Shown one piece after another: positions 56,687-64,000 of a DNA stretch of 64,000 nucleotides; positions within the stretch are counted from its first letter, which is position 1; each line of letters begins with the position of its first letter. The stretch lies in IMG/VR virus record IMGVR_UViG_2839610755_000002. One strand, 5' to 3'. The stretch comes from a virus. Taxonomy: Duplodnaviria > Heunggongvirae > Uroviricota > Caudoviricetes. Below the pieces are notes generated by a model. It made no database searches. It saw only the letters and a list, made by a program, of their open reading frames with translations, and had not been told where the DNA came from. The position numbers and the translations under genes are program-made.

Positions 56687-56762
56687 TGGTGCCGATTAAC
56701 GGGATCGAACCGCTGACCATTCGCTTACAAAGCGACTGCTCTACCAACTGAGCTAAATCGGC
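56687..56762 (-). tRNA. tRNA-Thr (anticodon UGU)
   Basis: Cloverleaf with canonical D-loop and T-loop, encoded CCA. Confidence 0.85.
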
Positions 56763-56766
56763 AATG

Positions 56767-56853
56767 TGGTGGGGAGTGATGGAGTCGAACCACCCGAGTC
56801 GCAATGACAGTAGATTTACAGTCTACCCCGCTACCCCTACGGACTAACTCCCC
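56767..56853 (-). tRNA. class II tRNA-like gene, anticodon GUA (Tyr-like), long variable arm
   Basis: 7-bp acceptor stem, perfect anticodon stem, 14-nt variable arm, encoded CCA; D-arm pairing imperfect. Confidence 0.5.
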
Positions 56854-56858
56854 TAAAG

Positions 56859-56933
56859 TGGCGATGGTGGGTGGATTCGAACTACCGACCAGTTGGTTAA
56901 CAGCCAACTGCTCTACCGCTGAGCTACACCATC
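56859..56933 (-). tRNA. tRNA-Asn (anticodon GUU)
   Basis: Cloverleaf with canonical loops, encoded CCA. Confidence 0.85.
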
Positions 56934-57598: not shown

Positions 57599-57615
57599 AA
57601 ATTTATTAGAGCAAT
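57599..57615 (-). promoter_or_regulatory. C1 operator, perfect consensus
   Basis: Minus strand reads ATTGCTCTAATAAATTT exactly; overlaps the dmt stop. Confidence 0.65.
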
Positions 57616-60600
57616 ATACCCAAAACGTCATGAGCTACACCTCGAGTGTCCCCCTTACAAGACACAGAACGTCTGGCAAAAAGAGGTTCCACTCTGAAGC
57701 CACTGTCATGATAAAGCTCTCTGATGTTTGGCGCGCCACTGTTAGTAATGAGAACCTTTGCACCTCGACGATGAGCATCCGTCAACAGAGACACCAGGCG
57801 TTTTTGCTCTTCAAACTTAAAGTCATGACCGGAATAGTTCGTGAATCCCTCTGTATTTGGAAGCGGTTCATACGGCGGATCGCAAAAGATGACATCTCCT
57901 TCTCCGGCAGCTTCAATCACCGCTGCAAAATCACCGCATACAAACTCAGACCGCCCTTCCGCACCGAGGAAGGCTTCCATCTCCTGTAATGGGAAATACG
58001 GAGTTTTATACTTCCCATAACCGACATTGAACTCACCGGCCTGGTTGTAACGCGTCAATCCGTTAAAACAATGTCGGTTCAGGAACAAAAACGCCGCTGC
58101 GCGATGTAAATCATCATAGACTTGTTTGTTAAACGCATTCCGTACTGCCAGGTATCCTTCCTGTGTGTTGTAGTCCTGGAAGAAACGATGTGCCAGAGTG
58201 ATAAGTGAATGCGCCTCGCGTTGCAGAGTCTTGTAAAAGTTAATCAGGTCAGCATTCACATCATTTAGCAGATTTTCCTGGTATCCGGCATTCATGAAGA
58301 CAGCTCCGCCACCAACGAAAGGTTCAATCAGGCGCTTCCCTTCTGGCAAATAGCGAAAGATTTGTTCCAGAACACCAAATTTTCCACCAGCCCATTTGAA
58401 TATGGACCGTTCGAATTCTGCCGCTGGTTTAACTTTTCGCTCTTTTGTTTCACTTCCTTCTTTCTGCCGACATACGGCCTTAGTAATCCGATCGCCAATC
58501 CAGCGCATTACTGGTATTGCCATACTATTGCCGATCGCTTTGTAACGCGGTCCGTCAGCTGCAAGCATTGCGGCCTCTTCTTCGCTTAAATCTGGATAGT
58601 GATTGTGCAGATATGCCAGTTCATCTGAATTAACTTTTTTACGCTTTTCCGTAGGGATCAACGTATGCCAATCAGGAAAACCTTGCAGCCTTTCACATTC
58701 GACAGGGGTAAGACGGCGCATTCTACCGTCGCCGAGCAATACAATTGGTGCTTCATGGTTACATGTCAAAGTTGGTGCCGAATTATCGGTTTTTATCTCA
58801 GCCCCTCCTTGCCCATGTGCCATGGCAATTATGTTTGTATCATCGCAAGTTCTGATAGCGATGTTTGAAGTATATCTGGTAGTTTCCTTCCCCTCGCCTC
58901 TGCTCGGCGCAATATTCCGGCGCACGCCTTCGAACTCAAAAAGTACCGTTGCGGGATCGAGATCTGTTCGAGCACTTGCGACAACAAACACGCGTCGGCG
59001 TCGTTGTGCCACTCCGAAGTATTGGGCATCAAGGATTCTCCAGGCCACTTTTCGCTGCGGTCCATAAATACAACCACACTGCGGCCACTTTGGAACATGG
59101 CAACCGGTTTTGCCATCCCACCGCCAGAACGCGTTGCTTTTTCCTGATTCAGGTCGATCACCTGGTTCAAATGGCACATCTTCTCCAGCCAATCCGGCAA
59201 GGAAACATCCGAAGGCGTTATCTGCCGATGACAAGACTCCTGGGACATTTTCCCAGACGATAACGGCTGGTTTGAGAAATGACTCAGCCCGTTTGTCGTC
59301 AATTGCATTTGCAAGCTCCACATACTTTAAAGTTAGCGCGCCACGCTCATCATCAAGCCCACCACGTAATCCCGCGATACTGAATGCCTGACAGTTATGG
59401 ACCACCGCACCATTGAGGATATAGGAATGATCACCTTCGACTTCTATGTTGTATACAGTATCTAGGCCTACCGATTTAAACTCTTTGACTGTTCGTAAAA
59501 GCATTCCATGAGCCAATCTTGATTTACGTGACAATTTCTGCGGGCAGATTGTTACCTGATAATAATTCCGTTGATTTACCACGCGATCCTCGATCACTTT
59601 TTTGGGCTCAACTTCAATAAAGCTGACCGAAGAAACATAACCACAAGTCTGTGACAACCCCGCAACGCCCCAAGCAAGCGCAGAACTAACACTATTAATT
59701 CTAAATCCCGCTTTACCACTTGGTGTCCCATCAGTATCAAGATAGCCTTGTAAAAACACATGACGCAATGGATGCGACATCACCCATGCAGGGATACGCT
59801 TAGCATGGCTTAACTCGCCAAAATGTTCATTAAGCCAATTGGCATAACACGTATCATTCAAGGTTACTTTGATGCTCCCTCGGATTTCGCTTGCCACGGA
59901 AAATATGTTTTCTGGTATGCGGCAATGAAACTTTCTCAATTTCTGGCAATTTATGCCAAAAACAACCGCCTTCTTAGATTTACCTCTCCATCTCCTAATA
60001 TATCCATCGCCAACATAAGCGCCCGCAAGATACATAGCCTGTTCTTCAGACAAGAACCGAGAACAAATATCTGGAAATGCAATATTGAAATTAGTTAGAG
60101 CGCACCATTGATATCCCGGCATATCACATGCTGCTCGCCATTCCGGTTCAGACAACAACTCTCTCTTAAAATATGTGCCATTTTTCCGGGTGTTTTGGGC
60201 TTTCCACCGAACAGCCAGGAAGGGATGGTCATTGGTTGTTCTTATACCTAAAGGCTGCCCAACGGCATTAAGTAACCCCGTATTAGCTATTTTTGAACCA
60301 ACTCTTTTTACTTGTTGTAACCGCCCGAGATGACTGACTACGTAATCACCAGGGCAAACATTTTCTATTGGTTTATAGCCATTTTTACAAAGAACCATAT
60401 GCCCCGCGGTAAAACATGGTGTTCCCCCGACGAGCACGTCAGGGGATTCGATTTCCCCAGCCAAGACTTTTTTGGCAAGTTTTTTCATGTCGCCAAGGTT
60501 GGCAACATGGGGCCAGCGGAGCGCAAGAACGGCCGATGGAAAAGGCTCGATTTCAGCAAACCACGCCGGACGCATACCCAACGGTTCCCAGGCAATACTC

Positions 60601-60647
60601 GCGGCTTCAATTCCACTGCAAACAGATCCATAGCACAGCTCTTTCAC
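57606..60647 (-). CDS. dmt: bifunctional C5-cytosine / N6-adenine DNA methyltransferase (Dmt-like) with in-frame intein
   Basis: C5-MTase motifs split by the intein at GGTP | CQAFSIAG, then ENV, QRRRRVF, AIGNS; C-terminal Dam-like domain with FKWAGGK and DPPY. Confidence 0.85.
59394..60416 (-). other. intein (341 codons) with LAGLIDADG homing-endonuclease motifs inside dmt
   Basis: Starts with Cys after GGTP, ends ...VVHN before Cys+1; block [11 protein letters not shown]; LAGLIDADG-like [11 protein letters not shown] and [10 protein letters not shown]. Confidence 0.8.
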
Positions 60648-61549
60648 TGCTTAGCCTCTCCGCCAAGGGCATTTACCAGAGCATCAACCAGGCACGAAAT
60701 TTCACTGGTCAACAGGAAGAAATCTGCGTCCAGTCGCTGCGCAACATCTTCACTATCAATATCAGAGTTCTGCTCAAGCAATTCATCCGCAAATTTGACG
60801 CTGGTAAGGCTGAAGTTATGGTCCAGTGTAAATTTAATGCGGTTCTGCCAGTCGAGTGCCAACTTAGTGACGAGCTTGCCAGCTTCCAGGTGTGTGGAAA
60901 TTTCATCGCTTCCCAAATCCTGCTTTTTCACTCGGGCAATACCGCCATCCTCAAGCACTGCCTTAAGTTCTGCCGCATCCCCCATTTGAAATCCCTGTGG
61001 AGCACTACCATCACGTACCCAGTCGGTCAGCGTTAATTCAATGGGATTTTCAACACTCAGGGGAACAGCAGGAAGAGAACCCAGAGACTTACGCATAAGC
61101 GCGAGCATATCCTCTGCCTGCCGCGCGCTGGCATTGATATAGATACGTTTAGTTGAACCGTCGTAGATCGCCTGGATAACAGAAAACTTTGAAAAAGCCC
61201 GTGGCAGAAGAGAATGCAGAACTTCGTCTTTCAGGGAGTCCTTCTCTGTTTTCTTCAGTTTACGCGCTTGTTCTTGCTGAAGTTTTTCAATTTTTTCTTG
61301 AATAGCTCGCTGGATAACCGGCGGGGGAAGAATTTTTGTTTCGCGCTTTGCTTCAACAAGGATAAAACCATTTCCATGCATAGCGATAACTTCAGAATTA
61401 TCACCAAATGGCGATACAAAACCGAACTTGGCCATATCCTGACTACCGCATGGCGTGAAAAGGATCATTTTCTTTTTATCTTCTAAGTCGGTCAGATCCG
61501 CCTCACGAGAAAGTTTATAAATAGTAATGTTTTTCCAGTGCTTAAACAT
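60644..61549 (-). CDS. hrdC: RdgC homologue
   Basis: Start set at [13 protein letters not shown]; RdgC-like throughout ([14 protein letters not shown]...[22 protein letters not shown]). Confidence 0.85.
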
Positions 61550-61995: not shown

Positions 61996-62280
61996 GTGGC
62001 AAGCATTGCAACAAAAGACAGCATTTGTTCGGGGCACGGAGGATTCCCATCCAGGCCTCCTGTAGAGAGTGAACCACTACTTAAAGTCAACGGAGTCGAA
62101 GTGTTAGTTGATGGTAAGCAATATGCACAGCATACCGATGGAAACAGTACGCACGGTGGGCAAGCTATATCAACCAGGGCATGGTTTACCGTCAATGGTA
62201 AAGGGATCGTATGCGTTGGTGACCCTGTTTCATGCGGATCTACCGTAGCGTCCGGAGACGGCCTGGTTCAGGTAAGTTAG
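61996..62280 (+). CDS. small Cys/Gly/His-rich protein, PAAR-like
   Basis: 94 aa with paired His and Cys clusters (SICSGHGG...HTDGNSTHGG...VCVGDPVSCGS). Confidence 0.4.
   Translation: MASIATKDSICSGHGGFPSRPPVESEPLLKVNGVEVLVDGKQYAQHTDGNSTHGGQAISTRAWFTVNGKGIVCVGDPVSCGSTVASGDGLVQVS

Positions 62281-63277: not shown

Positions 63278-64000
<723 letters not shown>

Follow-up and report, generated by a model that had tools for sequence, protein, structure and literature searches.

Inteins in phage DNA methylases were described by Kelley et al. 2016 (PMC5050341), who found them in N6/N4 DNA methylases of mycobacteriophages and described E. coli and Salmonella as apparently free of inteins, and a 2025 survey (bioRxiv 10.1101/2025.01.02.630785) counts the C-5 methylase (IPR001525) among the intein hosts of actinobacteriophages. 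Phage P1 depends on Dam methylation at its pac sites for packaging, and its methyltransferase gene dmt is thus essential in dam- hosts (PMC12707154). Here we analysed the copy of dmt that a P1-like phage-plasmid from E. coli carries on a 64,000-nucleotide stretch of the IMG/VR virus record IMGVR_UViG_2839610755_000002 (Caudoviricetes), hereafter "the window". P1-type Dmt is a C5-cytosine methyltransferase fused to Dam, and within this gene positions 59394-60416 on the minus strand encode a bona fide class-1 intein, with a Hint splicing domain and a nested LAGLIDADG endonuclease. Considering all evidence jointly, this element is very probably a splicing class-1 intein with a homing endonuclease, i.e., a selfish passenger that recently spread among P1-like dmt genes. 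Our literature search returned no description of an intein for Dmt of the P1 type or for any replicon of E. coli, although this check was incomplete and an earlier mention is possible.

The dmt precursor is encoded by an open reading frame (ORF) at 57606-60647 on the minus strand, as are all parts of the gene given below; it is 1013 amino acids long, has a GTG start overlapping the hrdC stop codon, and reads in the order N-extein, intein, C-extein. The insert (59394-60416) is exactly 341 codons long, free of stops, and in frame between GGTP and CQAFS(IAG), so that an earlier note made from the sequence alone had both the coordinates and the position at the catalytic PCQ motif right. Aligned to P7 Dam (672 amino acids) and reference P1 Dmt (754 amino acids), the window protein shows a clean 341-residue gap in both homologues at the exact insert boundaries, with flanks 91-97% identical. 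Both of these proteins join GGTP straight to CQAFS (motif IV), identifying the first residue after the intein (Cys+1) as the catalytic cysteine, as had been proposed, and the same alignment shows reference P1 Dmt to be intein-less, in line with that note. The N-extein (77 amino acids, 60417-60647) covers the C5-methyltransferase motif I region through the GGTP of motif IV and ends in Pro77, while the C-extein comprises the rest of the C5-methyltransferase (58413-59393, with CQAFS, ENV, QRRRR, the target-recognition region, and GNS), followed by the Dam domain, a D12-class N6-adenine methyltransferase, and the stop codon (57606-58412). A plus-strand reading of 59394-60416 was rejected because its frames are riddled with stops, which places the feature on the minus strand.

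The intein (CFTAGH...VVHN) has the complete set of splicing residues, namely Cys1, the block B TxxH, block F, the block G His-Asn, and Cys+1. Cys1, the nucleophile of the first splicing step (block A; codon TGT, 60414-60416), is kept in 8/8 of the intein copies compared below as well as in homologues; block B was read as T61-N-D-H64 (60225-60236), and block G corresponds to His340-Asn341 (59394-59399), where cyclization of the asparagine would free the intein. The Cys+1 codon TGT lies at 59391-59393. Two LAGLIDADG motifs were identified, LAGAYVGDG at intein residues 130-138 (60003-60029) and LQGYLDTDG at residues 222-230 (59727-59753), both with an acidic residue at motif position 8 (D137 and D229, the putative catalytic aspartates). 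All hallmarks listed in the earlier note (Cys1, TxxH, terminal His-Asn, and the two LAGLIDADG motifs) are hence present. Profile searches point in the same direction, with a match to LAGLIDADG_3 (Pfam PF14528) inside the insert at 34.2 bits (cutoff 22.5) and a match to intein_Cterm (NCBIfam TIGR01443), covering block G, at 25.9-28.9 bits (cutoff 15.6).

Removing the insert in silico restored a contiguous C5-methyltransferase, consistent with what had been claimed for the motif itself. The PF00145 score rose from 104.9 bits on the precursor to 125.8 bits, as one stretch across the junction, and TIGR00675 (dcm) rose from 95.5 bits, below its cutoff of 100.65, to 115.5 bits. The spliced product carries the C5-methyltransferase motifs I, IV (PCQ), VI (ENV), VIII (QRR), IX, and X (GN) in order, and the Dam half is intact (PF02086, E=1.9e-56; TIGR00571, 249 bits against a cutoff of 114.85; CDPPYEP present). 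Masses computed from the sequence are 113 kDa for the precursor, 74.7 kDa for the ligated Dmt, and 38.3 kDa for the intein; the ligated product has 672 amino acids, close to the approximately 670 predicted earlier.

An AlphaFold2 model of the intein, built on 13 homologues, reached a predicted local distance difference test (pLDDT) score of 90.5 and a predicted template modelling score (pTM) of 0.88. When compared to the PDB with Foldseek, the 16 best matches were all intein endonucleases, led by PI-SceI (E=2e-17) and followed by the TliVMA and PhoVMA inteins, PI-PfuI, and PI-PkoII, with E-values from 2e-17 to 2e-9 and template modelling (TM) scores of 0.5-0.63. The free-standing LAGLIDADG enzymes I-DmoI and I-SceI ranked after the inteins and aligned to the central endonuclease domain. 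Sequence search of the PDB gave weak matches (Spl DnaX mini-intein, 1.5e-3; PI-PkoII, 0.024). Based on the secondary structure of the model, the homing-endonuclease domain spans approximately intein residues 121-295 (59532-60056), nested in Hint, and this nested architecture was confirmed by a mini-intein homologue of 141 amino acids (P0019) without exactly the central domain.

Taken at face value, these features outline a conventional splicing pathway. The uhr-hrdC-dmt operon would yield the 113-kDa precursor, in which Cys1 would undergo an N-S acyl shift and Cys+1 would then attack the resulting thioester; Asn341 would cyclize, and an S-N shift would come next. The expected products are the 74.7-kDa Dmt with a restored GGTPCQAFS active site and the free 38.3-kDa intein. 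The same thiol would thus act twice, first as the splicing nucleophile and later in the attack on C6 of the target cytosine. Since Cys+1 is the motif IV (PCQ) nucleophile of an established mechanism, the production of 5-methylcytosine (m5C) should require splicing, and a dependence of Dmt cytosine methylation on splicing would follow from this known chemistry. The earlier note needs correcting as regards Dam, whose separate C-terminal domain could do without splicing and is probably active in the precursor as well.

In a second correction to that note, the Dmt intein is not peculiar to the window, and instead belongs to a large same-site family in phage C5-methyltransferases. Searching protein cluster representatives with word-indexed and exhaustive HMMER searches recovered homologues at 29-56% identity; 4287 representatives had E<=1e-3, and 186 of these passed E<=1e-30. 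Among the 148 best representatives, 118 carry the junction P/C[FLVI]...N/CQxxS.(.)G (here and below, a slash marks a splice junction or the insertion point), with inteins of 323-368 amino acids, but this pattern itself demands Pro at -1 and hence provides no measure of the frequency of that residue. Junctions were therefore also read directly in the top 66 members, where Pro occupies -1 in 63 and Cys+1-Gln is found in 62. The penultimate intein residue is His in 105 of the 118 same-junction representatives. Across homologues, N341 is invariant, G132, Y134, D137, and G138 are nearly so, and Cys1 and TxxH are conserved. Only two of the 118 also carry the Dam-type DPPY motif, namely the cluster representative of the window protein itself (P0035) and P0036.

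Annotated phages with members of this family include Mannheimia phage vB_MhS_587AP2 (47.7% identity), Propionibacterium phage B22 (30%), E. coli jumbo phages such as A4 (27%), and Pseudomonas phage Lana. In A4 (Asteriusvirus; L020, 670-2568), the junctions read GGFP/CFPAGTM...VVHN/CQAWSVAG, and the gene is labelled DNA-cytosine-methyltransferase only. In a Mannheimia haemolytica prophage and in phage 587AP2 (L017, 5971-8321; L021, 1264-3584), the intein ORF is intact and the C-extein is deleted or frameshifted immediately past Cys-Gln; a free-standing HNH_3 homing-endonuclease gene follows this methyltransferase remnant. In none of the inspected records is an intein annotated; the host genes are called methylase, methyltransferase, or hypothetical protein. 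Overall, these inteins make up a large lineage that is specific to the catalytic PC motif of phage C5-methyltransferases and has gone essentially undescribed.

Within P1-like elements the Dmt intein is common. The window ORF matches dmt of pO111_2 (NC_013370.1), and that of several other E. coli P1-like plasmids, with 100% identity. Across 5426 complete E. coli genomes, dmt was detected in 492, of which 337 have an uninterrupted gene and 152 the intein, so that the intein is present in about 3% of all these genomes and in about 31% of those with dmt. These correspond to 493 dmt records in 492 genomes and 153 intein records in 152 genomes, with at most 4 split places per genome, which suggests that both dmt copies are interrupted by the intein in the one genome that has two. 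Of about 498 PLSDB plasmids with dmt, 126 have the intein; their hosts are E. coli, E. albertii, E. fergusonii, Salmonella, and Shigella. Phage records with the intein are RCS47, vB_EcoM-Ro157c2YLVW, and OP279344, the last a laboratory P1vir stock (L001, OP279344.1, 1501-4542) previously used in Argonaute studies (bioRxiv 10.1101/2022.09.09.507302). The OP279344 intein is 99.5% identical to that of the window at the nucleotide level, and its target-recognition cassette is P7-type, unlike that of the reference P1 genome. Intein-containing copies are annotated only as methyltransferase: the exact window protein, present on at least 1000 contigs, is named by RefSeq and its Prokaryotic Genome Annotation Pipeline (PGAP) only as "Dam family site-specific DNA-(adenine-N6)-methyltransferase", because the intein pushes the dcm model (TIGR00675) under its cutoff.

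We next consider how the intein came to be distributed in this way, based on a comparison of 8 intein-containing and 8 intein-less dmt loci. All 8 intein copies are intact ORFs with every catalytic and splicing residue, including both LAGLIDADG aspartates. In the C5-methyltransferase, the target-recognition region is an exchangeable cassette, P7-type in the window (58719-58904, delimited by alignment to P7 and P1); reference P1 has an unrelated cassette, 82 amino acids longer, and P7- and P1-type cassettes each occur both with and without the intein. Nucleotide diversity among intein-containing alleles is 0.0075 in the intein versus 0.011-0.049 in every flank segment, and the flanks are mosaic, with breakpoints near the insertion point. 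For instance, the 700 nucleotides upstream of the insertion point in L016 are similar to those of L008 except at -16, -13, -10, -7, and -1; at these five positions, as well as at +21 and +33, L016 has the haplotype of the intein-containing L014. The last N-extein codon, for Pro at -1, is CCA in 8/8 intein-containing and CCT in 8/8 intein-less alleles, a synonymous difference. Short intein-linked tracts on different dmt backbones, along with this CCA marker, indicate lateral spread by homing or recombination. A 50-nucleotide junction search recovered 47 uninterrupted alleles with a window-like flank, each with 1 mismatch, and the exact CCA/TGT join in none of the 47, so that no precise intein loss is seen in the window-like flank haplotype. 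The lower GC content (guanine plus cytosine) of the intein, 42.7% compared to 54.5% in the N-extein and 48.4% in the C-extein, may further reflect a foreign origin. A 76-nucleotide partial match in E. fergusonii plasmids was initially considered as a second intein type, and proved to be an IS1-truncated copy.

These patterns are consistent with a recent lateral spread that, as in homing, involved short co-conversion tracts, and by themselves would also be compatible with ordinary recombination. If homing is involved, the intein, freed or still within the precursor, would cut an intein-less dmt at GGAACACCT/TGTCAGGCATTC when two P1-like elements share a cell, and repair off the intein-containing allele would copy the intein and a few tens of flanking bases. 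The predicted endonuclease target in intein-less alleles is ACACCT/TGTCAGGC. The intein-less junction reads GGGGGAACACCT/TGTCAGGCATTCAG in alleles of the L007-L009 type and GGGGGTACGCCT/TGTCAGG in those of the P1/P7 type; most intein-less alleles have synonymous differences at -7, -4, and -1 (GGTACGCCT), which may or may not affect cleavage. Through such events, the intein would have spread recently as a selfish passenger among the P1-like phage-plasmids of Escherichia, Salmonella, and Shigella.

Patterns of polymorphism were used as a complementary, and rough, indicator of function. The ratio of non-synonymous to synonymous polymorphism (pN/pS) within the intein is 0.15 for Hint and 0.57 for the endonuclease, figures that rely on only 22 variable sites, and in the N-extein (77 amino acids) it is 0.14 in intein-containing versus 0.20 in intein-less alleles. 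This suggests that splicing competence may be maintained, with the nuclease perhaps under relaxed constraint. Such a combination, in which splicing is kept while the nuclease loosens, is the usual life cycle of inteins.

Several observations weigh against a splicing, homing intein. Two Pfam splicing-domain models stayed under their cutoffs (Hint_2, 28.1 against 28.4; Intein_splicing, 21.7 against 35.8), and the NCBIfam intein N-terminal model gave no match on the dmt ORF. Pro at -1 hinders the first splicing step in the Sce VMA1 intein; in the present family, Pro at this position is the rule despite the expected hindrance. The P1 and P7 records qualify the m5C activity of Dmt with a "perhaps". 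An endonuclease pN/pS of 0.57 is compatible with a decaying nuclease, the low N-extein pN/pS may reflect variation older than the arrival of the intein, and mosaic flanks could result from ordinary homologous recombination. Finally, some copies are decaying: dmt of L013 (strain D5 plasmid A, 3547-3729) has a stop at N-extein codon 62, an insertion sequence of the IS200/IS605 type truncates dmt in L016 (6454-6904), and an IS1 insertion lies 76 nucleotides into the intein in L004 (3001-3829, an E. fergusonii plasmid).

The alternative that best withstands the data is that the intein splices while its endonuclease is dead, with patchiness and mosaic flanks reflecting vertical descent and ordinary homologous recombination. 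The relaxed constraint on the endonuclease part relative to Hint (0.57 vs 0.15) would be expected in this case, P1-like plasmids are generally highly mosaic, with cassettes and flanks shuffled, and nuclease decay does occur in the family, where homologue P0009 has Asn instead of the second catalytic Asp. However, both LAGLIDADG aspartates and the whole ORF are intact in each of the eight copies, transfer involved very short tracts with the insertion point at their centre, as in double-strand-break repair at that place, and the CCA codon at -1 is strictly tied to the intein. We thus regard a dead endonuclease as possible but doubtful.

A different alternative is that the insert is a splicing-dead remnant, which would leave the C5-methyltransferase half inactive and the gene retained for Dam only. 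Dam is indeed the sole Dmt activity with a documented role (pac methylation, PMC12707154), and the cautious "perhaps" attached to the m5C role in the P1 and P7 annotation could be read in the same way. In Mannheimia, too, the methyltransferase gene around the homologous intein is visibly broken, and a Pro at -1 is unfavourable for model inteins. Yet all splicing residues are conserved, and the constraint on Hint (0.15) is among the strongest in the gene. The N-extein, which would be useless if left unligated, is still under purifying selection (0.14), and every C5-methyltransferase motif of the C-extein is intact. Moreover, the junction residues hold across the top family members, with Cys+1-Gln kept in all but four and Pro at -1 in all but three of the 66. 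Loss of splicing is hence an unlikely explanation.

Slightly less probable still is that splicing takes place conditionally, being either slowed by the Pro at -1 or gated by redox state (Cys1, Cys10, Cys21, and Cys+1), temperature, or DNA binding. If so, P1-like phages would possess a post-translational switch, with Dam active at once and m5C produced only after splicing, a delay that would matter since m5C can expose DNA to Mcr-type restriction. The intein would then be a domesticated regulator rather than a pure parasite, and its natural adaptation to Pro at -1 would make it useful for protein engineering. Lastly, that the segment belongs natively to the methyltransferase family as an accessory domain and is no mobile insertion, the scenario the earlier note had named as its own refutation, is hardly conceivable and was ruled out, since P7, reference P1, and the dmt alleles of the 337 uninterrupted E. 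coli genomes are joined exactly at GGTP/CQ without it, its fold is that of an intein endonuclease, and nothing was found in its favour.

The genomic surroundings of the gene are those of P1. According to the annotation of the P1 and P7 records, dmt is part of the operon uhr-hrdC-dmt, located upstream of a tRNA cluster and, in P1, under a C1-repressed promoter; in the window, the upstream neighbour in this operon is hrdC/rdgC (60644-61549, minus). Downstream of dmt, the window includes a cluster of tRNA-Thr(tgt), tRNA-Tyr(gta), and tRNA-Asn(gtt) (56687-56933, minus), and a tRNA-Met further on (54666-54741, minus). Reference P1 and P7 have only tRNA-Asn and tRNA-Thr at this place, and tRNA-Tyr is common to the window and phage Ro157c2YLVW. 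On the other side of the gene, a Gly-rich ORF of 94 amino acids (61996-62280, plus) is UpfC, labelled as a PAAR-motif protein in RCS47 and as a "PAAR domain-containing protein" in one plasmid, an unusual content for a phage-plasmid. Near the end of the window, a transposase-like ORF of 222 amino acids (63320-63988, minus) resembles, by reading alone, an IS3-family OrfB integrase core.

The preferred reading, i.e., a splicing class-1 intein with a homing endonuclease, has several implications. For the accessory genomes of E. coli and Salmonella, the Dmt intein contradicts the statement of Kelley et al. 2016 that inteins appear absent from these species. It also exposes an annotation blind spot, as the Dmt intein is common yet unannotated, and likewise the family at the C5-methyltransferase PC motif is uncharacterized. 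To judge from its sequence, this would be an intein family that naturally tolerates Pro at -1 and in which one cysteine may serve both splicing and methyl-transfer chemistry. Its host is a highly developed phage genetic system that includes a P1vir stock, and natural intein-less targets exist (P1 c1-100 and P7), so that splicing, homing, and co-conversion are measurable directly in E. coli.

Compared to known systems, the window locus is closest to reference P1 Dmt and P7 Dam, with which it shares orthologous exteins, the uhr-hrdC-dmt operon, and the C5-methyltransferase-Dam fusion; unlike the window, these two are intein-less and have CCT instead of CCA as the -1 Pro codon. The PC-motif inteins of other phages, prophages, and metagenomic proteins are homologous to the Dmt intein, occupy the same site (GG[TSF]P/C...HN/CQxxSxAG), and fall in the same length class, although the Mannheimia members differ from the window dmt in their broken C-extein. 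The methylase inteins of actinobacteriophages and mycobacteriophages likewise reside in phage DNA methyltransferases, and mycobacteriophage "DNA methylase" inteins match the Dmt intein at about 27% identity; these inteins, however, come from phages of Actinobacteria, and those of Kelley et al. 2016 are in N6/N4 methylases and hence occupy another insertion site. PI-SceI, PI-PfuI, PI-PkoII, and the TliVMA and PhoVMA inteins are alike in combining Hint with a nested two-motif LAGLIDADG endonuclease, Cys1, His-Asn, and Cys+1. Relative to PI-SceI and the archaeal inteins, the Dmt intein shares only 11-17% identity, interrupts a different protein at a different site, is carried by a bacterial phage, is shorter (341 vs 360-540 amino acids), and follows a Pro at -1. 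Overall, the Dmt intein has the conventional architecture of the PI-SceI type and involves no new mechanism, and inteins in phage DNA methylases are an already reported category.

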